A DNA stretch of 64,000 nucleotides from Lachnospiraceae bacterium. Its GTDB lineage: Bacteria > Bacillota > Clostridia > Lachnospirales > Lachnospiraceae. Position 1 is the first letter of the stretch. Each line of letters starts with the position of its first letter. A program made the position numbers and the translations under genes. The stretch is taken from positions 107,440 through 171,439 of the forward strand of contig JAFQVJ010000068.1 of assembly GCA_017408025.1 (NCBI GenBank), read 5' to 3'. This document shows, piece after piece, positions 327-25,852 of this stretch. The notes beneath the pieces are model-generated. The model was given only the letters and a program-made list of their open reading frames with translations. It did not search any database and had not been told where the DNA came from.

Positions 327-361
327 AAAAAAGACCACAACAGACTGGGTCTGTTGCAGCC
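327..361 (-). terminator. Intrinsic terminator / expression platform of the c-di-GMP riboswitch
   Basis: Minus strand GGCUGCAACAGAC-CCA-GUCUGUUGUGGUC (13-bp stem including G-U pairs) followed by UUUUUU. It starts immediately after the aptamer 3' end. Confidence 0.6.
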
Positions 362-458
362 GAACCATCATAATACTATAACCTTTCCCCTGTTATAATC
401 CCTTAGACTTCGTGCTTTGCGTCTCTATGTTTCCATAGGTTTGCCCCGTGAAGTTCAT
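362..458 (-). promoter_or_regulatory. c-di-GMP-I (GEMM-I) riboswitch aptamer
   Basis: Minus strand: CACGGGGCAAACC-UAUG-GAAA-CAUA-GAGACGCAAAGCACGAAGUCUAAGGG-AUUAUAAC...GUUAUAGU...UUCG. It contains the GGCAAACC and ACGCAAAGC cores, a GAAA-tetraloop hairpin and a second hairpin with a UCUAAG receptor-like bulge. Preceded by an extended -10 (TGTTACAAT). Confidence 0.72.
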
Positions 459-12412: not shown

Positions 12413-13888
12413 TCAAATTATAATACAAATGACACCACCCTTGCTATCATTAGTAATTTTTTGCAAGGTTTCCTGCATCTTTGTTTGAGTTTCATCAGAC
12501 AATTTGTCAATTTTTGTCCTTATTCCATCTGTGACTATCTGTTCAATAGTCTTACCAAATATATTGGTATTCCATATACCTTCCATGCCGTCTTTTCCAT
12601 TACTCTTAATAAACTCCATCAAATCCTTCGCTTGCGGCTCATCACCTACAATAGGTGCCAGCTCGGTCTGTACATTTGCTTTAATAAGATGTATAGATGG
12701 GGCTTCAGCTTTGATCTTTACACCATATTTTGTTCCATTCTTTATAACCTCCGGCTCATCCATAACTATCTCATTCTTACTTGGCATCACTACACCATAG
12801 CCTTTAGCCTGAACCTGTTCTAGTGCAGCTGATATCTTATCAAACTCTTCTTTTTTCTCGGAAAGACCTTTAATTGTCATTATCAATTCATATTCATTGG
12901 ATATATTCTGTCCTGTGAACTGGCTTATAACTTCGTAATAATAGTTCTCGGCAATCTCAATCTGTATACGAATAACACCTGTAGATAAATCCTTTTCACT
13001 AATATTCACTCCACTTATATACTGGTTATCTCCAATAAGTTCACGCAATCCCTGCTCGTCGAAAGCCTTCATATATGTACCTTTATTCAGAACATCTCGC
13101 GCAAACTTTATAATAGATGATTTAATATCATGTTCAGAATTTAACAGTTCAACCCATCCAGGCATAAAAAACATAATTTCACTTACAGGAAATTCCATAA
13201 GAACAGCCGATAATATTCTATTTATATCATCCTTTTTTAACTGATTGCAGTTTACTGGCATAACAGTTACTCCATATTTAATCATTAGTAACTCGGACAG
13301 CTTTAACACTTGTTCATCATCTGGTCTTGTAGTGTTAAGCAAAACTATAAATGGTTTATTTAAACTCTTAAGTTCCTTTATAGTCCTCTCCTCCGCCTCC
13401 TCATACTGCTCTCTTGTAAGCTCACCAAAGCTTCCATCAGTCGTAACAACCACACCTATTGTAGAATGATCATTTATAACCTTTTTTGTTCCTATCTCTG
13501 CCGCTTTTGAAAACGGTATATCATACTCGAACCAAGGTGTCTTAACCATTCTCTCTTCATTGTTTTCGATATGACCTGTTGCACCATCAACCATATAACC
13601 AACACAATCAATCAATCTTATTTTTACTGCCGTGTTACTGTTTAATATAACATTTGCAGCTTCCTTAGGAATAAATTTAGGCTCTGTCGTCATAATAGTC
13701 TTTCCTGCCGCAGACTGTGGCAATTCATCTTTTGTTCTTTCACGATTATGTACATCTTCCATATTCGGAATCACCAGTAAATCCATGAATTTTTTTATAA
13801 ATGTTGACTTACCAGTTCTAACAGGTCCCACAACACCAATATATATTTCTCCACCTGTTCTATTCTCAATATCCTTATATAAATCCAT
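12413..13888 (-). CDS. spoIVA: Stage IV sporulation protein A (spore coat morphogenetic ATPase)
   Basis: MDLYKDIENRTGGEIYIGVVGPVRTGKSTFIKKFMDLLVIPNM... matches the SpoIVA N-terminus and Walker A. ATG at 13888 is preceded by AAAGGAG. Confidence 0.93.
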   Translation of the reverse strand: MDLYKDIENRTGGEIYIGVVGPVRTGKSTFIKKFMDLLVIPNMEDVHNRERTKDELPQSAAGKTIMTTEPKFIPKEAANVILNSNTAVKIRLIDCVGYMVDGATGHIENNEERMVKTPWFEYDIPFSKAAEIGTKKVINDHSTIGVVVTTDGSFGELTREQYEEAEERTIKELKSLNKPFIVLLNTTRPDDEQVLKLSELLMIKYGVTVMPVNCNQLKKDDINRILSAVLMEFPVSEIMFFMPGWVELLNSEHDIKSSIIKFARDVLNKGTYMKAFDEQGLRELIGDNQYISGVNISEKDLSTGVIRIQIEIAENYYYEVISQFTGQNISNEYELIMTIKGLSEKKEEFDKISAALEQVQAKGYGVVMPSKNEIVMDEPEVIKNGTKYGVKIKAEAPSIHLIKANVQTELAPIVGDEPQAKDLMEFIKSNGKDGMEGIWNTNIFGKTIEQIVTDGIRTKIDKLSDETQTKMQETLQKITNDSKGGVICIII

Positions 13889-13917
13889 AAAAAAACTCCT
13901 TTGCATACTTTTACAAA

Positions 13918-13946
13918 AATATATGCAAAGAAGTCTCCTCTTATTC
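13918..13946 (-). promoter_or_regulatory. Sigma-E-type promoter of spoIVA
   Basis: Minus strand GAATAAG-N14-CATATATT, compared with the sigma-E consensus (G/T)(A/C)ATA(A/T)(A/T)-N14-CATACA(A/C)T. spoIVA is sigma-E dependent in B. subtilis. Confidence 0.45.
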
Positions 13947-13972
13947 ATTGTCTTTTATATAGTTTTAATCTA

Positions 13973-15031
13973 TTATTTCAATATTGATAGCTGTCTTGAT
14001 ACCTGCATAAATATCTTTACCAAATCAGGATCATATGTTGTTCCTGCTTCATCTGCTATAATGGCAACAGCTTTTTCACGAGCATCATCTATGGATAATT
14101 CATTATTTCCAGCCATTATTGCACCACATTCACTCTCAAATCTCTTACATACTGATAAAATTCTTGCCGAAAGTGGTATATCATCACCTTTAATTCCCGC
14201 CGGTCTTCCAGTCCCGTCCCATCTCTCATTATGACACTTTGCCACGTCTATTGCCATCTGAAGCATCTCATTATGTTCTGACAAGAACGACAAGTCCTTT
14301 AAGAATTCTACGCCACACTGTTCATGTGGAACATGACCCACACCGTTTGCATTTTTAGCTGACAAGCGTCCAATATTATGAAGAAGCACTGCTTCTCCTA
14401 TAGACTCAATAAATGTGGTGTTTATCTGTTTTTCATACTTATCCGAAAATTCCAATGCCTGAGCTAAAAACCTACAATTATAGGCCATATTTTTAAAGGA
14501 TTCCTCTTTTTCAGGAAAATGAAAAAAGAACATTTTTTCAAGAGCTCTAATTGTATTCTTCTGTTCCTCTTTTATTCTCATCACGTGTTCTTTTACCATT
14601 TTGTTCAGCTTTTTATTATATTCTTCTGTACTCTTCCTCATCTCATACATCTGAACATGGTTATCTACTCGTAAAGAAACCTCTTCCAATGCAAAAGGCT
14701 TATTAATAAAATCCACAGCCCCCAGATTAAATCCCTTAACCTTATCCTCATTTGACATTCCTGCAGATATGAACACTATAGGAATATCCTTTGTATTTAC
14801 ATCATTTTTCAAGATTTCACACAGTTCAAATCCGTCCATCTCCGGCATATACACGTCTAGCAAAATCAATTCCGGCATCTTCATTTTCATCATATCCAAA
14901 GCATCTTTTGCCGAGGATGCCGTTATAGGTGTATAACCACACTTTTCTAGCATTTTCTTCAATATGAGAAGATTTTCAAATAAGTCGTCAACAACAAGGA
15001 CAACTTTTTCGTTATTTATCATTCCATCCAT
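13973..15031 (-). CDS. Response regulator: REC domain plus degenerate HD-GYP domain
   Basis: REC (VLVVDD...LLDVYMPEMDG...KP). C-terminal HD-GYP-like domain has HN for HD (LLHNIGR), HNE for HHE and GRP for GYP (CHNERWDGTGRPAG). ATG at 15031 lies 6 nt after AAGGAG. Confidence 0.85.
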   Translation of the reverse strand: MDGMINNEKVVLVVDDLFENLLILKKMLEKCGYTPITASSAKDALDMMKMKMPELILLDVYMPEMDGFELCEILKNDVNTKDIPIVFISAGMSNEDKVKGFNLGAVDFINKPFALEEVSLRVDNHVQMYEMRKSTEEYNKKLNKMVKEHVMRIKEEQKNTIRALEKMFFFHFPEKEESFKNMAYNCRFLAQALEFSDKYEKQINTTFIESIGEAVLLHNIGRLSAKNANGVGHVPHEQCGVEFLKDLSFLSEHNEMLQMAIDVAKCHNERWDGTGRPAGIKGDDIPLSARILSVCKRFESECGAIMAGNNELSIDDAREKAVAIIADEAGTTYDPDLVKIFMQVSRQLSILK

Positions 15032-15041
15032 ACGCATCTCC

Positions 15042-16541
15042 TTATCTAAATTCTTCTTCAGTTATGCTAGAAAGCATTTCTTTTACATTTCCTAAAATAG
15101 TAATCGCTTTTTCGTAATTAGCTTTCCTTATAGTAAGAATCAACTTAAATAAAAGCTTATCCAAATCTTCACTCTGACCTGCAACTAACTCTTTTATGTT
15201 AGATGCAAACATTTCAGCCTTTTCATAGTTATTTAACTCAATTGTAATGGCAAGCTTATCAACATTCTTGTGTATTTCAGCAAAATTTGCCACAGTACCG
15301 AATTTGCAAACATCTGATATATCTGACTGTTCAAACAACTGACCATTACTATGAGCGACCACATCTGTATATGTAAAGTTATTCTCGTCTATATTACCAG
15401 CTTTATCAGATTTCTTTAGAATAATGTTAAATGAGAACGTACTTCCTTCACCCTTTGTACTCTCCACATATATTTTTCCATTCATCATTTCTACAAGCTG
15501 TTTTGTAATAGCAAGACCAAGTCCTGTACCACCATACTTTCTGGTAACAGAGGCATCAACCTGTGAAAATTCCTTGAACAGCTTCGTCTTTTCTTCCTCA
15601 GATATACCTATACCTGAATCAATGACCATAAAAAACAGCTCAACATAATCATCAGTCTCGCTGGCCTTCATTATTTGAAGCATAACATTTCCCACAGCTG
15701 TAAATTTTACTGCATTAGACATAAGATTATTGAGAATTCTGCTAAGTGCAAGTTCATCACATAACACATACTCTGGAATATCCTTTGCAACATTAAGCAC
15801 AAGTTTCAAACCCTTTTCGTCGATGTTCTTAATATGTGTTGCAACAATATTGTCAATAAACTTACTAAACTTACACTCTTGCTCATCTAAAAGGTATTTA
15901 CCAGCCTCCAACTTTGAGAAATCAAGAATATTGTTGATAAGCTTCATCATATTATCAGCACAATGCTCTATAATCTCAATAGTTCTAATCTGTTCACTAT
16001 TTAACCCTGATTCTCTTAAATCCTTAACATGACCAATGATACCATTAAGTGGTGTCCTAAGCTCATGTGTCACATTTGCCACAAATTCAGTTCTTATTTG
16101 TTCTGTTTTCTTCTGCTCTTCCTTGGCGATATTCATCTGTTTTTCCGCGCTCTTTATCAAAGATGTCTCAATAGCACAAACAGCACCAGTATATCTGTTA
16201 TCGTCAGATATTTTTGAAGCAATTCTTGCCTGCACATCAAAACAAGTCATGTTCTTTCTGTACATGACACTCAATATACTTTCCCCGCCATTCACTTTCT
16301 CAAAAGAAATATGTCCATTATCATCAATAGAAAATACATCGGTGAGAATCTCACCGATATATTTTCCTACGATTTCATCCTGTGAATAGCCTAATTTTTT
16401 TATTCCAGTAACATTACACTCTTTGATAATACCTTTTTTATCAAAGAAAATAATAATCTCCTGTGTAATACTCTGTATAAGTTCACCATGAACTTTGTCA
16501 ATGATAATATCTAAATTAGTCAATTCCATTTCTTTTATCAC
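15042..16541 (-). CDS. Soluble PAS-domain sensor histidine kinase with C-terminal helical extension
   Basis: No TM segments. PAS-like N-terminus, H-box FVANVTHELRTPLNGIIGH, and an HATPase_c domain (GGTGLGLAITKQLVEMMNG). About 120 extra C-terminal residues. Start is uncertain (GTG at 16541 or ATG at 16529). Confidence 0.85.
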   Translation of the reverse strand: MIKEMELTNLDIIIDKVHGELIQSITQEIIIFFDKKGIIKECNVTGIKKLGYSQDEIVGKYIGEILTDVFSIDDNGHISFEKVNGGESILSVMYRKNMTCFDVQARIASKISDDNRYTGAVCAIETSLIKSAEKQMNIAKEEQKKTEQIRTEFVANVTHELRTPLNGIIGHVKDLRESGLNSEQIRTIEIIEHCADNMMKLINNILDFSKLEAGKYLLDEQECKFSKFIDNIVATHIKNIDEKGLKLVLNVAKDIPEYVLCDELALSRILNNLMSNAVKFTAVGNVMLQIMKASETDDYVELFFMVIDSGIGISEEEKTKLFKEFSQVDASVTRKYGGTGLGLAITKQLVEMMNGKIYVESTKGEGSTFSFNIILKKSDKAGNIDENNFTYTDVVAHSNGQLFEQSDISDVCKFGTVANFAEIHKNVDKLAITIELNNYEKAEMFASNIKELVAGQSEDLDKLLFKLILTIRKANYEKAITILGNVKEMLSSITEEEFR

Positions 16542-16544
16542 TTT

Positions 16545-17906
16545 CTAATATTTTCCAAATCCACTTTCAAGCGAAATAATATTTTCATTGCTTCTTGCCA
16601 TACGAGAATTCATCATACCCGTATGGTAATATGGCTGTTCCACATTTCTAAGCTTGAATTTAGCAATAAGTTCTCTAAGTCTCGTAGCCTGATTTGAAAG
16701 CTCTTCACTTGCTGCAGCACATTGCTCACTTGTAGCCGAATTGCTCTGTACAACCTGTGATACCTGACCAAGAGCCTGATCAATCTGTGTTACCGCTGTA
16801 GCCTGCTCATTTGAAGCCGATGCAATTTCGCTTATAATATTTACAATTTTATCAATATTTTCTACGATTTCAGCTAGTGCTGCACCTGTTTCTTCTGCAA
16901 TCCTTGAACCTCTCTCAATCTTACTGATAGAATTCTCAATAAGCTCTGATGTTTCACTGGCTGCTTGCGAGCTCTTAGCTGCAAGATTTCTAACTTCTTC
17001 AGCAACTACTGCAAAGCCTTTACCATGAGCACCTGCCCTCGCCGCCTCAACAGCAGCATTTAAAGCAAGAATATTTGTCTGGAATGCAATATCATCAATC
17101 ACTTTGATAATCTTCGAAATATTTTCAGATGATTCATTAATCTCATTCATAGCAACCATCATTTCCTGCATCTGCTCATTGCCCTTTACAGCACCAGCCT
17201 TTGTTTCAATAACAAGCTTGTTTGCATTATTTGCCTCTGCAGCATTAACCATTGTACGCTGTGCTATATCATCAATAGATGCTGTAATTTCTTCAAGAGC
17301 ACTAGCCTGCTCTGTAGACCCCTGAGCAAGAGACTGACTGGCAGATGCAACCTGTTCAGAACCTGTTGTAACCTGCATAGATGCTTCGCGTATATTCCCA
17401 AGTATATGGTTATTGTCATCAACGAGCTTCTTCAAGGATTTTCCAAGAATATCAATGTCTGTTCTTGGTTCTACATCCATAGACATATCACCTTCTGCTA
17501 TTCTATTAGTCAACTCTGCATCATGCTTAATATTAGCAACTGTCTCTTGTAATGCATTAATGATAGTACCAAATTCATCATCACAAAACTTCTTCAGTTC
17601 TACCTCAACACCGCCATCCCCTACTACCTTGATAGCTTTTACAATCTGCTTTAATGACACTCGTATAGAGCGCCATACATACACACCCAGGCTCACAATG
17701 GTCAATAGAGCCACCACTATCAACACAAAAGAAAATACAGTAAAGCTTCTTATATAACTTTCGGCTTTATCACCGCCAAACCACTCTACGGCATTAGCTA
17801 TACCCATAAAAAGTAGCACTGCAAACATAACTATGAAAAATACCGAAAAAATTATCAGCCAACATACTTTTGTTGATATTTTCCCATTCTTTATCTTAGT
17901 CAACAT
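16545..17906 (-). CDS. Methyl-accepting chemotaxis protein (paralog 1)
   Basis: Two TM helices separated by about 19 aa, a HAMP-like linker, and a conserved MCP signalling domain ([37 protein letters not shown]). Confidence 0.92.
16632..17525 (-). repeat. About 0.9 kb paralogous repeat (MCP signalling-domain coding segment), copy 1 of 3
   Basis: Near-identical at protein level and roughly 90% at DNA level (judged by eye) to 18610-19491 and 20016-20897. Confidence 0.8.
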
Positions 17907-17950
17907 AACATGTACCTCCGATTATTCCTTCTCACTATTTCAGCACATCT

Positions 17951-18478
17951 CTATGCTTCTGCGTTTTCCTCTGCCTGTGCTTCTTCAGCAGCCTCTTCCA
18001 TAAATTCCAAATCTTCATCCTTGATAAGCTTATCTGGATCCAGCAGAAGTTTAACAGCCTCACCTACTTTTCCTAAGCCCCATACATATTTATTCATAGC
18101 ATTTCCATGAACAAGCTTTGGTGGTGGCTCTATGTCTTCATCCTGAATAGTAACTACCTCCTCTATTTTTTCAACGATAAGACCAATTACTGTTGACTGA
18201 ACATCTATAATAATAATACATGTTCTATCGTTGTACTCTAAAGGTTCCTGCTTAAATCTAAGTCTCACATCTATAACAGGGATAATCTTTCCGCGAAGAT
18301 TGATCAGACCCTTTATGTATTCCTCTGACTCAGGGATTGCTGTAATATTCTGAATGCCTATAATCTCATTAACAAACTTTATAGATATTCCAAAATGCTC
18401 ACGACCCGACTTAAAGGTCATATACATACCCTTCTGGGTATCTTCTTCTTCTAACATTTCTTCTATAATATCACTCAC
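17951..18478 (-). CDS. cheW: Chemotaxis coupling protein CheW
   Basis: CheW-like domain (FGISIKFVNEIIGIQNITAIPESEEYIKGLINLRGKIIPVIDVRLRF) with an acidic C-terminal tail. GTG start lies 7 nt after GGAGG. Confidence 0.9.
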   Translation of the reverse strand: MSDIIEEMLEEEDTQKGMYMTFKSGREHFGISIKFVNEIIGIQNITAIPESEEYIKGLINLRGKIIPVIDVRLRFKQEPLEYNDRTCIIIIDVQSTVIGLIVEKIEEVVTIQDEDIEPPPKLVHGNAMNKYVWGLGKVGEAVKLLLDPDKLIKDEDLEFMEEAAEEAQAEENAEA

Positions 18479-18519
18479 CGTTATTCCTCCATTTCTATAT
18501 TATTCTCTAATAGCATGCG

Positions 18520-19887
18520 CTAGTATTTGCCAAAGCCACCTTCCAGTGAAATAATATTTTCGTTATTGTTCACGGACATCATATTTGTCTGATAATATGG
18601 TTGTTCAGTATTTCTCAGTTTGAATTTAACAATAAGTTCTCTAAGTCTCATAGCCTGATTTGAAAGCTCCTCACTTGCTGCAGCACATTGTTCGCTGGTT
18701 GCTGAATTACTCTGTACAACCTGTGATACCTGTCCAAGTGCCTGGTCAATCTGAGTTACTGCAGTTGCCTGTTCATTTGATGCTGTAGCAATTTCGCTTA
18801 TAATATTGACAACCTTATCGATGTTCTCAACAATCTCTGCTAATGCAGCGCCTGTTTCTTCTGCAATCTTAGAGCCTTTTTCAACCTTGCTGATAGAATT
18901 CTCTATAAGCTCCGCTGTCTCACTTGCAGCCTGTGCACTTTTTGCAGCCAGATTTCTAACCTCTTCTGCAACTACTGCAAAACCTTTTCCGTGGGCACCG
19001 GCTCTTGCCGCCTCTACAGCTGCATTTAACGCCAGGATATTTGTCTGGAATGCAATATCATCAATCACTTTAATAATCTTTGAAATATTCTCTGATGATT
19101 CGTTGATTTCATTCATCGCAACCATCATTTCTTTCATCTGCTCATTACCCTTTACAGCACCAGCCTTTGTCTCGTTAACCAGCTTGTTGGCATTATTTGC
19201 CTCTGCCGCATTAACCTTCGTACGATGTGCAATATCGTCAATTGATGCTGTAATTTCCTCAAGTGCACTTGCCTGCTCTGTAGAGCCCTGTGCAAGGGAC
19301 TGACTTGCTGAAGCAACCTGTTCAGAGCCTGTTGTGACCTGCATTGACGCTTCACGTATATTACCAAGCACATGATTATTGTCATCAACAAGCTTTTTTA
19401 ATGACCTTCCAAGAACATCTATATCTGTTCTTGGTTTAATTTCCATAGACATATCGCCTTCTGCAATTCTGTCTGCCAGTTCTGCATCATGCTTTACAGC
19501 AACTGCCATTTCATTAATAGCTGATATAATATCACCAAATTCATCATTAGTGTCCCTTTGTACTTCTACATCTACACCACCATCACGAACAATATTGATT
19601 GCTCCAATAATTTTCTTTAAATTAAAAGATATTGTCCGTGAAACATATACTCCTAAAGCTACAATCATAACCTCGAACACCACTGCAGTTATAATACTCT
19701 GTAAAACAATGGAATTTGCTTTTTCTGCCATCTGTGCTTCTGACAAACCTGCGTATCCGCCAATTTTTTGAGCTACTACATATAACTGCAACGAAAAAAG
19801 TATAATTACAGTAATTGATAATCCTACGAGAGCTCTAACCTTTGTCTTTACCTTCATATTTTTCATTATTTTTGTTGTGATTAACAT
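18520..19887 (-). CDS. Methyl-accepting chemotaxis protein (paralog 2)
   Basis: Same architecture as paralog 1. The N-terminal ~130 aa are divergent and the rest is near-identical. Confidence 0.92.
18610..19491 (-). repeat. About 0.9 kb paralogous repeat, copy 2 of 3
   Basis: See 16632-17525. Confidence 0.8.
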
Positions 19888-19931
19888 TCTTACGCCTCCA
19901 ATCCATTTCAGGTTTCCTCGTGCTACATAGC

Positions 19932-21263
19932 TTAGTACTTACCAAAGCCATTTCCTAGGGAAATGATTTTTTCATTATCATTTGTTACACTCTTCTGATA
20001 ATATGGCTGGCTATATTCCCTGAGCTTAAACTTAGATATAAGCTCTCTAAGACGTATAGCCTGATTTGAAAGCTCCTCACTTGCTGCAGCACACTGCTCA
20101 CTTGTAGCTGAATTGCTCTGCACAACCTGTGACACTTGTCCAAGTGCCTGATCAATCTGTGTAACTGCTGTAGCCTGCTCATTTGAAGCTGTTGCAATTT
20201 CACTTATAATATCTACTATCTTATCAATATTTTCTACGATTTCAGCAAGGGCAGCACCTGTCTCCTCTGCAATTTTTGAACCCTTTTCAACCTTACCGAT
20301 AGAATTCTCAATAAGCTCCGCTGTCTCACTTGCAGCCTGTGCGCTCTTTGCAGCAAGATTTCTAACTTCTTCAGCAACTACGGCAAAGCCTTTTCCATGT
20401 GTGCCTGCTCTTGCTGCCTCTACAGCTGCATTTAATGCAAGAATATTGGTCTGGAATGCAATATCATCGATCACTTTAATAATCTTCGAAATATTTTCTG
20501 ATGATTCATTGATTTCATTCATTGCAATCATCATTTCCTTCATTTGCGCGTTACCCTTTACTGCTCCAGCCTTTGTTTCAATAACAAGCTTGTTGGCATT
20601 ATTGGCCTCTGCAGCATTAACCTTCGTACGCTGTGCTATATCATCAATTGATGCTGTAATCTCTTCAAGTGCACTTGCCTGCTCTGTAGAACCCTGTGCA
20701 AGGGACTGACTTGCAGATGCAACCTGTTCAGAACCTGTTGTAACCTGCATAGAAGCCTCTCGGATATTTCCAAGTACATGATTGTGATCATCAAGAAGTT
20801 TTTTAAATGACTTTCCTAATTCATCAATATCTGTTCTAGGGGAAACATCCATAGACAAATCACCTTCTGCTATTTCATCTGCAATATTCGCATCATCTTT
20901 AATATTTTTTACAGTAGCATTTAATGCATCAATGATAATACCAAATTCATCCTCATTGTATTTCTCAAGCTCAATTTCGACACCACCATCACCAATAATC
21001 TTAATAGCTTTAACAATTTCATCTAAAGGCTTTTTGATACACTTTCTTATGTAATATCCACTAGCGATCATTATAACCATAAACACAAATGACACTGCTA
21101 TTATAAATATTTTCGCATTATTCGCATAACTGCCTACGTATAAACCCGGTCTCTCTAAAAAATCTTTACCCAAGCTTGTTAATAATGCAATAATTACTAT
21201 CGCTATACCTATTAAAGAATTAATTTTTGTTGTTATCTTTGAATTCTTATATCTTTTTATCAT
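19932..21263 (-). CDS. Methyl-accepting chemotaxis protein (paralog 3)
   Basis: Same architecture: two TM helices with a ~21-aa loop, HAMP, and a conserved signalling domain. Confidence 0.92.
20016..20897 (-). repeat. About 0.9 kb paralogous repeat, copy 3 of 3
   Basis: See 16632-17525. Confidence 0.8.
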
Positions 21264-21335
21264 ACTTTATTCCCTTCCGCTACCACACGTTTATACATCT
21301 CTATATAACCGTTTTAGTCTCTCTATGCCTACGCT

Positions 21336-23435
21336 TTATATTAATCCACCAACATCGAGTATCAGTGCAACACTTCCATCACCAAGCTGTGTACAGCCTG
21401 AAAGCCCCTGCACCTTCTTGAAATAGTCTGGAATAGGTTTTACAACAATTTCCTGTTCACCGATAAGCGATGAGATAAATACACATACCTTCTTACCTTC
21501 ATGCTCAAGAACTGCCATAACATCTCTTTCGGGATCCACTTGATAGCCTTCAATCTTGTACTTTTCTCCAAGGTTTACAAGTGGCATAATTTCGTCTCTT
21601 ATGCGAACTGCGGTATCCCCTGTTGGATTTTCTATAATTGTTCCCTCTGAAACTCTAACAAACTCTTTAACAGCATTAGTTTCCACCACAAATGTAGATG
21701 AACCAATTTTCAGAACTATGCCTGTTATGATTGCAAGAGTAAGTGGTATCTTCATTGTCATTGTTGAACCTTTGCCCTGAACACTGTCAATTTCAAGAGT
21801 TCCACCGACATTGCTAAGATTCTTTACTACAACATCCATACCAACTCCACGTCCAGAAAGCTCGGTAACCTTTTCCTTTGTAGAAAATCCTGGGAGAGTT
21901 ATGAATTGGAATATTTCCTTATCCGAATACTCAATATCCTTGTTAATAAGACCATTTTTCCTAGCCTTGGCCAGAATTTTCTCTTTGTTAAGTCCTTGAC
22001 CATCGTCCTCCACTACAATCAGTACTTTACCGCCCTCATTCTTGGCTGTTAATTTGATAACACCTTTAGGATCTTTGCCAACTGCCATACGATTCTCTTT
22101 CGTCTCAATACCGTGATCAACAGAATTTCGTATAATATGCATAAGCGGATCGGAGATATTTTCAATTATATTCTTATCTACCTCCGTATTTTCACCAGAT
22201 ATAACAAGCTCTATCTCTTTTCCAAGCTTTCTGGCAGAATCGAAGACTATTCTGTTCATCTTCTGGAATGTCGGATTAAGAGGCACCATTCTCATAGACA
22301 TTATAACCTCTTGCAAATCAGATGTTATCTTCATAAGCTGACCAGTTGCCTTCGTGAAATTCGTCAAATCGAGACCTGGAACCTTAAGGTCAGGATTCTG
22401 TGCCACGACAGCCTCCGCTATTACGATTTCACCGATTAAATCCATTAGCTGATCCATCTTCTCTACATTGATACTGATAAATGTCTGCTTTGGTTTAACC
22501 TCATTCTTTGCAAGTTTTTTTGCCTTACCAACTTCTTTTGATTTGATAACATAATCACCAGGTTTTGGTTCTTTCTTTTCCTTTTCCGCTTTTTCTTCAA
22601 TTTGTTCTACAGTTGATGTCAAATCTATGACCGCATCATTAGACTCAAACCCAAGCTGATACTCCTTGGCCGAACACTCGTAGATATCGATTTTTTCAAC
22701 CTCCGAGCCGTCTATCATCTCCAGTATTTCTTCTTTAGAACACTGTGCCTGTAAAAGCATCTTAAAACCATCCTTTAAGATCACATCAGCACTTGCTTCA
22801 TTCGTAAGAATATCCTCTGGTGTAAAAAGCAAATCTTCTGCAACCTCTTTCAATGCATATGTTGCAGAATATGCTCTTATATTGCTCATCATTGTGTCAC
22901 TGCGATAAGTCATATGAATCTTATAGAAATGACTGTTTTCCGTAGAAACAGGTGGAATATAAAACTGACTAGGTGCCACATAAACGTTTTCTGGTGGCAT
23001 CTCTTTCTTTTCATCCTTTTGAATCTCATGCTTTATGGTCTTGAGGAATTTCTCAAGGTTCTCCATAATTTCTGATTCATCACCATCTGGTTCTTCACCA
23101 TCTCTAATTTTATCTAACTCACCTGATATAAATCCCGAAACATCTAATACATAGCCAACAAGCTCCATATGTGGGATATTATCTGGCTTTGACTCTCGAA
23201 TATAATAAAATATATCCTCAAGTTTATGAGATACCTTTGTGATATTCTCAAACATCATAATACCTGATGAACCCTTAATCGTATGCATTACCCTAAAAAT
23301 TTCATTTATATCATCAGATTCAAAAGACTCTGCATCCTTTTTTTCGATAACTAATTCATCAAGTTTTTCAAGAAGCTGCCCACTCTCAAAGAGAAATATG
23401 TCAAGCATTCCCTCAGTATTAAACTCCTGAGACAT
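21336..23435 (-). CDS. cheA: Chemotaxis histidine kinase CheA
   Basis: Hpt P1 (FRVMHTIKGSSG), dimerisation domain, HATPase domain (GRGVGMDVV), and a C-terminal CheW-like P5 domain. Confidence 0.95.
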   Translation of the reverse strand: MSQEFNTEGMLDIFLFESGQLLEKLDELVIEKKDAESFESDDINEIFRVMHTIKGSSGIMMFENITKVSHKLEDIFYYIRESKPDNIPHMELVGYVLDVSGFISGELDKIRDGEEPDGDESEIMENLEKFLKTIKHEIQKDEKKEMPPENVYVAPSQFYIPPVSTENSHFYKIHMTYRSDTMMSNIRAYSATYALKEVAEDLLFTPEDILTNEASADVILKDGFKMLLQAQCSKEEILEMIDGSEVEKIDIYECSAKEYQLGFESNDAVIDLTSTVEQIEEKAEKEKKEPKPGDYVIKSKEVGKAKKLAKNEVKPKQTFISINVEKMDQLMDLIGEIVIAEAVVAQNPDLKVPGLDLTNFTKATGQLMKITSDLQEVIMSMRMVPLNPTFQKMNRIVFDSARKLGKEIELVISGENTEVDKNIIENISDPLMHIIRNSVDHGIETKENRMAVGKDPKGVIKLTAKNEGGKVLIVVEDDGQGLNKEKILAKARKNGLINKDIEYSDKEIFQFITLPGFSTKEKVTELSGRGVGMDVVVKNLSNVGGTLEIDSVQGKGSTMTMKIPLTLAIITGIVLKIGSSTFVVETNAVKEFVRVSEGTIIENPTGDTAVRIRDEIMPLVNLGEKYKIEGYQVDPERDVMAVLEHEGKKVCVFISSLIGEQEIVVKPIPDYFKKVQGLSGCTQLGDGSVALILDVGGLI

Positions 23436-23482
23436 CTTATATCCTCCTTCCTTTGTAACATTCCGTTTACCTGCGGAATAAT

Positions 23483-23890
23483 TTATTTTTTAGCTACAAA
23501 TCCAAGTCTTTCAAGAAGAATTGTAAACTTCTCAACATTTACAGGCTTACCTACATATGCATCGCATCCGATTTCCATGGCTTTTTTGACATTGATTTCC
23601 TGATTCAATGCAGTAGTCATAATAACTCTGGCCTTCTGCTCAGCCGGAAGATTTCTTTCTTTCTCAATCTTCCTTATAGTATCCAACACCTGATATCCAT
23701 CAAGCATCGGCATCATAACGTCAAGAATAACCAAGTCATAATTATCCTCATCCTCATCTTCCAATGCCATCAAATATGCATCTACCGCCTCAAGACCATT
23801 TACGGTGACATCACATTCACCATACTCTCCAAGTAGTTTACTCATAAACTTTCTACTTGCAAAATCATCTTCAGCCAATAAAATTTTCAT
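23483..23890 (-). CDS. cheY: CheY-like single-domain response regulator
   Basis: 135-aa REC-only protein (ILLAEDD...LDVMMPMLDG...GKP) directly downstream of cheB and upstream of cheA. Confidence 0.85.
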   Translation of the reverse strand: MKILLAEDDFASRKFMSKLLGEYGECDVTVNGLEAVDAYLMALEDEDEDNYDLVILDVMMPMLDGYQVLDTIRKIEKERNLPAEQKARVIMTTALNQEINVKKAMEIGCDAYVGKPVNVEKFTILLERLGFVAKK

Positions 23891-23912
23891 AATTATATAC
23901 TCCTTTCAATCT

Positions 23913-24950
23913 CTATGACCATTTACTCAATAGTCCATGTATTTTTTCCGGAATTGCTTTTAATCCGGTCTGATATAGTACACCTCCCAGTTCCTTTGCA
24001 ACCTTCGGCATACCGTATACTATACAACTTTCTTCATCTTGCCCTATAGTAAGTGCTCCTTGCTCCCGCATCTTATACAGGCCCTTGGCTCCATCAGCTC
24101 CCATACCGGTAAGTAACACCCCTATAGCATTCTTTCCACAGGCAGTAGCCACCGACTCAAAAAGTACATCTACCGATGGACAATGACCACTTACACGTGG
24201 TCCTTTGTAACATTCTATCTGATAATTGCTTCCGACTTTCACAACCTTCATCTGCTTATCACCAGGCGCCACATAAACATATCCTGATTTGATTACATCT
24301 CCTGTCTTTCCTTCGGAAACTTTAAACTTTGTCTGGTTATCGAGTCTATCTGCAAACATCTGTGTAAATCCTGGTGGCATATGCTGCGTTATAACAATTC
24401 CTGGTGCATCTCCGTCTAAACCATCCAACACTGAGCTTATAGCTTCAGTTCCTCCTGTAGACGCTCCAATTGCCAAGACAACATTTTTGTATCTGTCACC
24501 CTGAACAGGCAAATTCTGCATATTACCACTATATTTTGCTCTTTTAAAATTACTAAGCTTAACAGTAGACGCAATTTTTACCTTAGTAACAAGTTCATTA
24601 TGTATGAAATCTCCCAATTGTTCCTTTGACATTCCCGCTGGTTTATTTACAAAATCCACTGCACCTGCATTTAACGCATCAAACACCTTATCATTAAGCG
24701 AACTAACCATTACTACAGGTAACGGATGCTGTGGCATCAATTTCCGCAAAAACTCAATACCATCCATCTTCGGCATCTCCACATCAAGGGTCATCACATC
24801 TGGCTCATATTTTATTATCTTATCACGAGCTTCAAAGGGATCACCTGCTGTTGCAACAACCTCAATGGCAGAATCTGCATTAAGACCATTTACAAGAACA
24901 TTCCGGAACATATAGGAATCTTCTACTACCAATACCCTTATCTTTTTCAT
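23913..24950 (-). CDS. cheB: Protein-glutamate methylesterase CheB
   Basis: N-terminal REC plus a methylesterase domain (AIGASTGGTEA ... ITQHMPPGFT ... GMGADG). Confidence 0.93.
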   Translation of the reverse strand: MKKIRVLVVEDSYMFRNVLVNGLNADSAIEVVATAGDPFEARDKIIKYEPDVMTLDVEMPKMDGIEFLRKLMPQHPLPVVMVSSLNDKVFDALNAGAVDFVNKPAGMSKEQLGDFIHNELVTKVKIASTVKLSNFKRAKYSGNMQNLPVQGDRYKNVVLAIGASTGGTEAISSVLDGLDGDAPGIVITQHMPPGFTQMFADRLDNQTKFKVSEGKTGDVIKSGYVYVAPGDKQMKVVKVGSNYQIECYKGPRVSGHCPSVDVLFESVATACGKNAIGVLLTGMGADGAKGLYKMREQGALTIGQDEESCIVYGMPKVAKELGGVLYQTGLKAIPEKIHGLLSKWS

Positions 24951-24956
24951 ATCATC

Positions 24957-25760
24957 CTACTTTCGATAAACAGATGGTCTTACATACTTAAAGTTTGTCT
25001 TTGATTTATCAATAGACTCCGTCGTTCCGATAAACATATATCCACCTGGTACCAACATATCGTATATTCTGTTTACTAAATTATTTTTTGTCTCTTCGTC
25101 AAAATATATCATTACATTACGAATGAACACTACATGTAGTTTCTGTCTAAATGGCAACGGATCCATCAAATTAAATTTTCTAAATATAACCTGCTTTTTT
25201 AATTCATCAGTCACTACACACTCTTCAGTTCCCACGCTCCGAAAATATCTGCGTTTCCATACATCAGGCAATGGTTCAATCTGTTCCTTGAGATACTTTC
25301 CACTTTCAGCATGTTCCAAAACACGAGTTGAAATATCCGTCGCTAAAACTGTTGTATCCCACAACCTGTCCTCAAGGGCAAAAAAATCTTTATATATCAT
25401 TGCCAAAGTATATGCCTCTTCTCCTGTGGAAGCTGCTGCGCACCATGTTCTTAAATCTTTTGTGTTTGCCAAAGAATTTTTAACTTCCGGTAAGACAATA
25501 TCTTTAAGAAATCTAAAATGCTCAGATTCTCTCATGAAATATGTATGATTTGTAGTCAGATTATCTATAAGATCACGTACCTCTTTACTATCAGGTTTAT
25601 TTTCGACCTTGCTCATAAAATCTGAATAGCTTTCATATCCGTTCCTAGCCAGATAATTATCAAGTCTTCCTGTAACGAGCACCTTTTTTTGACTCAAATC
25701 TATTCCATAATTTGATTTGACGTAATTGACAATTCTGAAAAACTCAACATCTGTTATCAT
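24957..25760 (-). CDS. cheR: Chemotaxis protein methyltransferase CheR
   Basis: CheR SAM-dependent methyltransferase (WCAAASTGEEAYTLAM ... FIRNVMIYFD). Start is probably the internal ATG at 25760 (MITDVEFFRIV...). The track start at 25823 has no RBS. Confidence 0.9.
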   Translation of the reverse strand: MITDVEFFRIVNYVKSNYGIDLSQKKVLVTGRLDNYLARNGYESYSDFMSKVENKPDSKEVRDLIDNLTTNHTYFMRESEHFRFLKDIVLPEVKNSLANTKDLRTWCAAASTGEEAYTLAMIYKDFFALEDRLWDTTVLATDISTRVLEHAESGKYLKEQIEPLPDVWKRRYFRSVGTEECVVTDELKKQVIFRKFNLMDPLPFRQKLHVVFIRNVMIYFDEETKNNLVNRIYDMLVPGGYMFIGTTESIDKSKTNFKYVRPSVYRK

Positions 25761-25852
25761 ATCAACTACCTTTTTTTCACTATACTCTGCTATAATCACT
25801 GTATGACATTGGGAAGCTATCATACATGTATAGTAAAGCTCTCACAAGTTAT

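Follow-up and report, generated by a model that had tools for sequence, protein, structure and literature searches.

What does a response regulator do when its output domain has the fold of an HD-GYP phosphodiesterase and a degenerate active site? The question is raised by a gene on the minus strand of a 64,000-nucleotide (nt) stretch of DNA from a Lachnospiraceae bacterium (contig JAFQVJ010000068.1, positions 107,440 to 171,439), referred to here as the window. The gene encodes a receiver (REC) domain joined to an HD-GYP-like domain and closes a cluster of chemosensory (Che) genes. An earlier note on this DNA had proposed that most signature and metal-ligand residues of the HD-GYP domain are replaced, and had offered two roles for the product, a phosphorylation-controlled nucleotide receptor or a protein-interaction adaptor. 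The reading favoured here, with a probability of roughly 0.6, is that the protein is an RpfG-type REC-HD-GYP response regulator whose output domain would be a protein-binding pseudo-enzyme, tied to the second chemosensory system of the genome.

An HD-GYP fold with a degenerate active site

The regulator is laid out as follows, in window coordinates:

13973..15031, minus strand: REC / degenerate HD-GYP response regulator gene, 352 amino acids from M3
14669..15001, minus strand: receiver (REC) domain, residues 13-123, from Pfam
14519..14689, minus strand: continuous helix of ~57 residues from REC alpha5 into the output domain, residues 117-173, from DSSP on an AlphaFold2 model
13988..14530, minus strand: HD-GYP-fold domain with degenerate active site, residues 170-350, from Foldseek and a profile search against the PDB

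The open reading frame (ORF) listed for the gene extends from 13973 to 15037 on the minus strand and specifies 354 amino acids (P0001), with the stop codon at 13973-13975. The true start is almost certainly its third codon, M3 (ATG at 15031), because an AAGGAG box lies ~7 nt ahead of this ATG and the orthologues begin MD..NNEK; given this start, the limits 13973-15031 assigned in the earlier note are exact. Residue numbers follow P0001, and subtracting 2 gives the likely mature numbering.

Three Pfam models match above their cut-offs: Response_reg (1.3e-24, residues 13-123), HD_5 (4.8e-14; 52.9 bits, cut-off 27.2, the match covering only the C-terminal half of the model) and HD (5.7e-06; 27.0 bits, cut-off 22). 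The top NCBIfam match is the REC-HD-GYP phosphodiesterase model NF053512, with a score far under its cut-off. The receiver pocket is complete: the phospho-acceptor D61, the acidic pair D17/D18, S91 and K113 are all present, and D18, D61 and K113 are invariant across an 85-sequence alignment. The AlphaFold2 model (m828fa5bea5d5), for which an 85-sequence alignment was the input, has a mean predicted local distance difference test (pLDDT) value of 91.6 and consists of REC, the helix 117-173 and then the HD-GYP helices; the long helix probably acts as a signalling or dimerisation stalk. Foldseek best matches are the HD-GYP domain of PA4781 (4r8z; E 5.5e-11, TM 0.74 on target) and PmGH (4mcw), and a match to WspR (3bre) comprises the REC domain plus the stalk. 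A profile of the 85 homologues run against the PDB aligned the whole output domain to 4r8z (8e-52) and 4mcw (4e-44). The output domain is therefore, by family-model match and by fold, a member of the HD-GYP group, and a complete N-terminal receiver followed by such a domain is the architecture of the RpfG family.

The register of the active site was taken from phmmer comparisons with the PDB chains of PA4781 (4r8z), V-cGAP3 (5z7c) and PmGH (4mcw); ligands were mapped on an alignment with 82 canonical REC-HD-GYP homologues, and the profile against the PDB supplied a further alignment, in which S180 falls under the first His ligand. The seven core metal ligands are, in PmGH numbering, H189, H221, D222, H250, H276, H277 and D305. 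Frequencies below compare these canonical homologues with the family of the window protein, 39 sequence clusters in all.

14498..14500, minus strand: S180 in place of the first His ligand (PmGH H189); family T/R/S/K, His 0/39; canonical His 77/82
14375..14380, minus strand: H220-N221 for the HD motif (PmGH H221-D222); N221 only in subclade P0001-P0005
14225..14233, minus strand: H269-N270-E271 for HHE (PmGH H276-H277-E278); N270 in 38/39 family clusters; canonical His 81/82
14201..14209, minus strand: G277-R278-P279 for GYP (PmGH Y285); position 278 unconstrained among family members (K, V, L, R, F, E, M or C)
14144..14146, minus strand: K298 in place of the last Asp ligand (PmGH D305); family N26, K5, S3, T2, R1; canonical D56, S21
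14090..14125, minus strand: loop L10/11, residues 305-316; IMAG and a 5-residue insertion where canonical proteins have RxY[K/R]

The two motif replacements quoted in the earlier note are both in the sequence. LLHNIGR, with H220-N221 at nt 14380-14375, aligns with LLHDIGK, and CHNERWDGTGRP, with H269-N270-E271 at nt 14233-14225 and G277-R278-P279 at nt 14209-14201, is in register with the HHERWDGxG(Y/F)P of 4r8z, 5z7c, 4mcw and the 82 canonical homologues (HMMER). The region of the first His had also been quoted, with a small error of position: the site is S180 in 'ESFKNM', 3 residues ahead of the string NMAYNCRFLA cited for it, which starts at the 'RV' position (N183-M184). Misregistered motifs are ruled out, as three independent alignments give the same register, and so is a sequencing error at N221, a substitution common to five distinct clusters that form one clade. 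The checks called for in the earlier note, an alignment to characterised HD-GYP proteins and a structure prediction, reveal both degenerate ligands and an HD-GYP fold.

Three of the seven core ligands are kept (H220, H269 and H238, the counterpart of PmGH H250) and four are replaced (S180, N221, N270 and K298); most family members keep four. Further PmGH residues have changed as well, with D183 becoming F174, R192 becoming N183 and D308 becoming E301. Three losses go beyond those previously listed: D305 is replaced by Lys, RxY[K/R] is missing and has 5 residues inserted next to its place, and the loop after HDIGK is without the conserved 'IPDxIL' pattern of canonical relatives. R314 and K317 of RxY[K/R] bind guanine in PmGH, where the GYP tyrosine Y285 forms a hydrogen bond with the substrate phosphate. 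Alanine at H189, H221, D222, H250, H276 or H277 abolishes PmGH activity (PMC4159591). Since positions essential in this mutagenesis (H189, D222 and H277) are replaced in the window protein, along with D305, hydrolysis is very unlikely, as had been expected for cyclic di-GMP (c-di-GMP) and cyclic GMP-AMP (cGAMP). Judged by sequence, the protein has neither the seven ligands, nor the GYP tyrosine, nor the RxY[K/R] motif and clamping loops of a competent HD-GYP phosphodiesterase.

Much of this substitution pattern is shared by a whole family. A search of 5.8 billion proteins yielded 38 clusters at 62-99% identity to the window protein, followed by a gap to <=43%. Among 1.84 billion 50%-identity representatives, a threshold of 1e-30 is passed by a single full-length sequence and a single fragment, and because there are only these two, the family is on this measure an isolated island in sequence space. 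HNE is found in 38/39 clusters and GxP is fixed, whereas Tyr285 and the first His each occur in 0/39. HD is kept in 34/39 clusters; the five with HN all fall in the subclade of the window protein, P0001-P0005, which is monophyletic, well supported and also carries K298 and R/K278. The stem branch of the family is long (1.03 changes per site) and the reading frame is intact in all 39 clusters. The degenerate regulator is present in 7/16 species genomes of one Lachnospiraceae genus, and no orthologue above 48% identity was detected in 150 other genera of Lachnospiraceae, represented by one genome each. The closest canonical relatives, at 40-48% identity, have all ligands intact. Degenerate HD-GYP domains in general are not rare, since about one fifth of the other top 50%-identity representatives deviate at >=2 key positions, YN types included. 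The genome also encodes two paralogous HD-GYP-like proteins of ~380 amino acids, L010 (G000:C37:4011-4493) and L011 (G000:C57:14289-14753), whose degeneration is opposite to that of the window protein: the whole HHE...GYP loop is absent, and HD, the ADxYD helix and RxYK are kept.

The pattern of constraint was gauged against the closest available orthologue, 88% identical at the amino acid level. As synonymous sites are saturated, the proportions of nonsynonymous (pN) and synonymous (pS) differences are given in place of dN/dS: pN is 0.014 and pS about 0.6 in the REC domain, against a pN of 0.095 and a pS of about 0.62 in the output domain. The output domain is, on these values, under purifying selection, yet evolves several times faster than the receiver. 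Identity ranges from 86 to 98% for REC and from 48 to 81% for the output domain, and at a REC identity of 0.8-0.9 output identity is 0.55 in the family versus 0.72 in canonical relatives. Entropy per segment, calculated from 13 family representatives, is distributed as follows:

REC: 0.35 bits, the most conserved part of the protein
alpha6: 0.58 bits
alpha8: 0.77 bits
GxP loop: 0.85 bits
L10/11 claw (305-316): 2.43 bits; canonical relatives 1.07 bits
L7/8 claw (226-237): 2.48 bits

L7/8 and L10/11, the c-di-GMP clamps in PmGH, are thus the most variable segments and exceed the far more diverged canonical set. Other parts are fixed: family-specific invariant residues comprise FFLHFPE (170-176), N183, N187, E239, FL..LSFLSEHN (245-256), C297, C304 and R320, and the invariant cysteines of the family are C188, C297 and C304. 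The family-specific invariant residues point to a function that would be retained but different. Degenerate motifs within an otherwise conserved and selected domain would place the protein with inactive RpfG-family members of the PA2572/HnoD type.

A regulator carried by a second chemosensory cluster

The genes upstream of the regulator are the following:

15042..16541, minus strand: PAS-HisKA-HATPase histidine kinase, cytoplasmic and cognate, 4-10 nt upstream of the regulator gene
16545..25823, minus strand: second chemosensory core (cheR, cheB, single-domain REC, cheA, mcp, mcp, cheW, mcp), co-directional and tightly packed

The regulator is the last of ten co-directional genes, in the order cheR-cheB-REC-cheA-mcp-mcp-cheW-mcp-PAS kinase-regulator, with spoIVA next. 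Gaps around the kinase and regulator genes measure 3-10 nt, and an identical gene order is found on six contigs carrying five orthologues (62-88% identity). A flagellar-type CheA, the second CheA of the genome, is encoded on another contig. The distribution across the 16 species genomes of the genus follows the cluster: all seven genomes with the regulator have the CheA of the second system at 87-100% identity, four contain a diverged version of the cluster (CheA at 59-63% identity), and five possess the flagellar CheA only and no regulator orthologue. The regulator is thus encoded in, and inherited with, a complete non-flagellar Che cluster. Gene spacing and synteny suggest that the cluster and the regulator are co-transcribed. 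A scan for promoters and terminators picked out a single good promoter-like site, ahead of cheR, and detected no terminator on the minus strand within the cluster; its matches were close to shuffled expectation.

The adjacent kinase has all its catalytic boxes, and each relative of the regulator follows an orthologous kinase, whether inside or outside Che clusters. It ends in a C-terminal helical tail of about 110 residues (~390-499) that is conserved in non-Che orthologues, with 43% identity through residue 479; because this tail is conserved outside Che clusters, it is not an adaptation to the Che array. The three methyl-accepting chemotaxis proteins (MCPs) encoded at 16545-21263 on the minus strand have two membrane helices joined by a connection of ~20 residues and no outside ligand-binding domain, and orthologous clusters contain 1 to 3 MCP copies. 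On the other side of the regulator, the spoIVA ORF is listed at 12413-13948 (minus strand) with a start ~20 codons too early (MNKRRLLCIYF...). Because the conserved SpoIVA protein starts near MDLYKDIENRTGG, the gap between the regulator gene and spoIVA is ~85 nt, enough for a separate promoter. One orthologous contig encodes, a few kb downstream of spoIVA and adjoining flgM, flgN and flgK, a giant flagellin of 1610 amino acids with flagellin N- and C-terminal domains (L014:14709-19541).

How did such a regulator come to stand here? Its closest canonical relatives also follow an orthologous kinase but sit outside any Che cluster. A related kinase-regulator pair is found directly upstream of cheR-cheB-REC-cheA-cheW-mcp in 10 genomes, nine from other genera and one from the same genus. 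Regulators linked to Che genes are non-canonical in 10/10 cases, whereas unlinked pairs are canonical in 8/8. Among the linked proteins, HD has become CD in 8/10, one has HHA and one C/CYA/EGG. The CD-type regulators keep HHE and GYP; K225 is mostly N, D305 is replaced by S, T, E or G, and D308 is C in most. Four of the ten Che-linked clusters have a fully canonical REC-HD-GYP gene just upstream of the kinase. The 'CD-GYP' regulators (L030:10647-11705 in G162; also L037, L038 and L041-L045) might have, with cysteines at metal positions, a different metal or redox centre and not a dead site. One Che-linked regulator match, G040:C7:28196-29245 (L037:9503-10561), contains one in-frame TGA and may be a broken copy or reflect a sequencing error.

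Phylogenies separate the window family from these linked regulators. It groups with the unlinked canonical clade in the kinase tree (support 88/86), it lies outside the CD-type clade in a tree of REC plus linker, and a post hoc approximately unbiased (AU) test speaks against a placement among the Che-linked clades (p = 0.03). The history that these trees favour, without proving it, is that in this lineage the 3' end of the Che core acquired a canonical pair, which displaced the older upstream pair and then lost catalysis independently.

A broader interpretation is possible, though distinctly tentative: coupling to a Che array may have made REC-HD-GYP proteins non-catalytic repeatedly, at least twice, in Lachnospiraceae. 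The two lines would be the widespread 'CD-GYP' clade, with its Cys-rich replacements, and the HNE/GxP family of the window, and the resulting proteins would join two-component signalling to the chemoreceptor array by docking on it or by poisoning active HD-GYP dimers. If this were true, such pseudo-enzymes would form a dedicated, still undescribed, two-component/chemoreceptor-array link.

What the output domain may do

The proposed mechanism assigns the regulator a role as an adaptor. The PAS kinase would phosphorylate D61, and the long helical stalk, probably as part of a dimer, would transmit the signal. Phosphorylation would then alter the contact of the dead HD-GYP domain, or of the receiver itself, with a protein partner. 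The likeliest partner would be a component of the co-expressed chemoreceptor-CheA array, by analogy with PA2572 and PA2573; an active c-di-GMP enzyme, as in the inhibition of HnoB by HnoD, would be the alternative. The regulator would neither degrade c-di-GMP nor bind it in the canonical manner. The intact receiver, the purifying selection on the output domain and the precedents of PA2572 and HnoD all speak for the protein-interaction adaptor among the two roles suggested in the earlier note.

Several points weigh against this proposal. The phosphodonor, whether the adjacent kinase, CheA or both, is assigned by adjacency alone; CheA may not be a donor, because the dedicated HisKA kinase directly upstream also accompanies the unlinked relatives. 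The genomes behind the comparison of Che-linked and unlinked regulators are related, so that its counts are not independent trials. Furthermore, H220, H238, H269, N270 and E271 are strictly conserved in the family, and D221 is found in most members: given this conservation of polar residues, a remnant single-metal or anion site may survive.

The receiver could instead be the part that matters. It would drain or buffer phosphoryl groups from the PAS kinase or CheA, or dock on the array, with the HD-GYP domain reduced to a dimerisation scaffold. No other part of the protein is nearly as conserved as REC (86-98% identity versus 48-81% for the output domain), PA2572 and PA2573 make contact through the receiver domain alone, and the operon already contains a single-domain CheY-like REC and CheB, so that several receivers compete for phosphate. 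The output domain, however, has many family-specific invariant residues (FFLHFPE, LSFLSEHN, C297, C304 and R320), a low pN/pS and a conserved GxP loop scaffold, a constraint that exceeds the needs of a passive scaffold. Such a decoy or phosphate sink is unlikely.

Ranking just behind it, and likewise unlikely, is the other role proposed in the earlier note: a phosphorylation-controlled receptor, in which the dead site would bind c-di-GMP, pGpG, cGAMP or another nucleotide and report its level. Degenerate EAL and GGDEF domains act as receptors in other systems, binding of c-di-GMP is described as frequent among inactive c-di-GMP domains (bioRxiv 10.1101/2021.11.05.467447), and a polar core is left in the protein (H220, R224, H238, H269, N270, E271 and R292). 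The ligand itself would be at hand in a genome whose c-di-GMP network is rich, with about 10 GGDEF, 6 EAL, 11 HD-GYP-like and 5 PilZ matches. Moreover, the window contains a riboswitch from which it follows that c-di-GMP signalling is in use in the organism:

352-455, minus strand: c-di-GMP-I riboswitch (Rfam RF01051, 51.2 bits, gathering score 35)

A receptor is nonetheless disfavoured because the residues that contact c-di-GMP are lost and the claw loops are the most variable segments. All known contacts of PmGH are gone (Y285, R314, K317 and the loop after HDIGK) and their replacements are unconserved; the main argument is the hypervariability of both claws, one of which has an insertion.

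A residual or altered enzyme is improbable. It would use a single-metal site formed by D221/N221, H238, H269 and N270 for slow hydrolysis or for a different substrate. The ligands that match the tightly bound 'G-site' metal of PmGH are the conserved ones, N270 is fixed, and HD-GYP enzymes accept several metals and vary in nuclearity. The alanine mutations at three of the replaced positions, however, each kill PmGH activity, and the window protein is also without the bridging Asp and has unconserved substrate-binding loops. An incipient pseudogene, whose output domain has no remaining function, is highly improbable and was rejected: measured against REC, the domain has diverged faster than its canonical counterparts (0.55 versus 0.72) and the stem branch of 1.03 changes per site is long, but none of the 39 clusters has a disrupted frame, pN lies clearly under pS, the domain is kept across species with saturated synonymous sites, and the fold is predicted with high confidence.

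An inactive protein-binding regulator would have wider implications. The family is a clean natural example of the passage from HD-GYP enzyme to pseudo-enzyme: metal sites and nucleotide claws have been freed from selection, with the fold, the scaffold of the GxP loop and new surfaces remaining fixed. Loss of catalysis is tied to recruitment into a non-flagellar chemosensory operon, in parallel with the little-understood PA2571-PA2573 module of Pseudomonas. Databases label such proteins 'response regulator' or 'HD domain phosphohydrolase', and any tally of how much c-di-GMP-degrading capacity gut Lachnospiraceae possess would therefore wrongly include the family among the enzymes. The window protein is small, soluble and easily expressed, and is suited to finding what inactive HD-GYP domains bind.

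Comparison with known systems

Two characterized proteins resemble the window regulator most in kind; the likeness is drawn from published descriptions and not from sequence alignment. PA2572 of Pseudomonas aeruginosa is a REC-YN-GYP protein with no detectable c-di-GMP hydrolysis (PMC3411652). Its gene lies between those of the histidine kinase PA2571 and the MCP PA2573, and the protein binds the cytoplasmic portion of this MCP through its receiver domain (PMC3411652). Both PA2572 and the window protein therefore combine REC with a degenerate HD-GYP domain and are encoded beside a histidine kinase and a chemoreceptor. They differ in their substitutions: PA2572 has YN and keeps GYP, whereas the window protein has HN and its family HN or HD, HNE and GxP. 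PA2572 is proteobacterial, unlike the window protein, which comes from Lachnospiraceae. The MCP PA2573 is an orphan; the window gene, by contrast, stands last in a full cheR-cheB-REC-cheA-cheW-mcp operon.

In Shewanella oneidensis, HnoD (SO_2541) is another RpfG-family regulator; it has SE for HD and QLE for HHE, and does not hydrolyse c-di-GMP (bioRxiv 10.1101/2021.11.05.467447). It inhibits HnoB, an active phosphodiesterase regulator that is served by the same kinase (bioRxiv 10.1101/2021.11.05.467447). A comparable arrangement of a canonical and a degenerate REC-HD-GYP around one kinase is seen at the equivalent locus in other Lachnospiraceae genera, but the cluster of the window has no adjacent canonical REC-HD-GYP. 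Moreover, the input to the HnoD network comes from an H-NOX nitric-oxide sensor, whereas the window regulator would be driven by a PAS kinase beside a Che array.

The active enzymes PA4781, TM0186 and PmGH, the best matches to the window protein in both sequence and structure, share its fold and domain order, and the window protein also keeps the HxE-WDG-G-P loop scaffold and the equivalents of H250 and H276. In contrast to these enzymes, the window protein has lost four of the seven metal ligands, the GYP Tyr, RxY[K/R] and the conserved loop after HDIGK. As in Wsp-type systems of the alternative cellular function (ACF) class, a non-flagellar Che cluster encodes a response regulator from a c-di-GMP-domain family, and WspR, like the window protein, consists of REC and a long stalk. 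A further point counted towards the likeness is that the chemoreceptors of the window cluster have no outside ligand-binding domain. WspR, however, is catalytically active as a cyclase and has a CheA-REC hybrid as its phosphodonor, whereas the output domain here appears inactive and a separate classical kinase is interposed.

Literature searches returned nothing on the window family or on HD-GYP regulators in Che clusters of Clostridia. Catalytically inactive RpfG-family proteins are an acknowledged class, and a census expects the list to grow (bioRxiv 10.1101/2021.11.05.467447). The features that belong to the window family itself are its substitution pattern, the lost nucleotide grip, its confinement to a single genus and, probably, its origin by paralogous displacement. 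Most likely, therefore, it represents a known kind of protein, the inactive RpfG-family regulator, in a new bacterial lineage.

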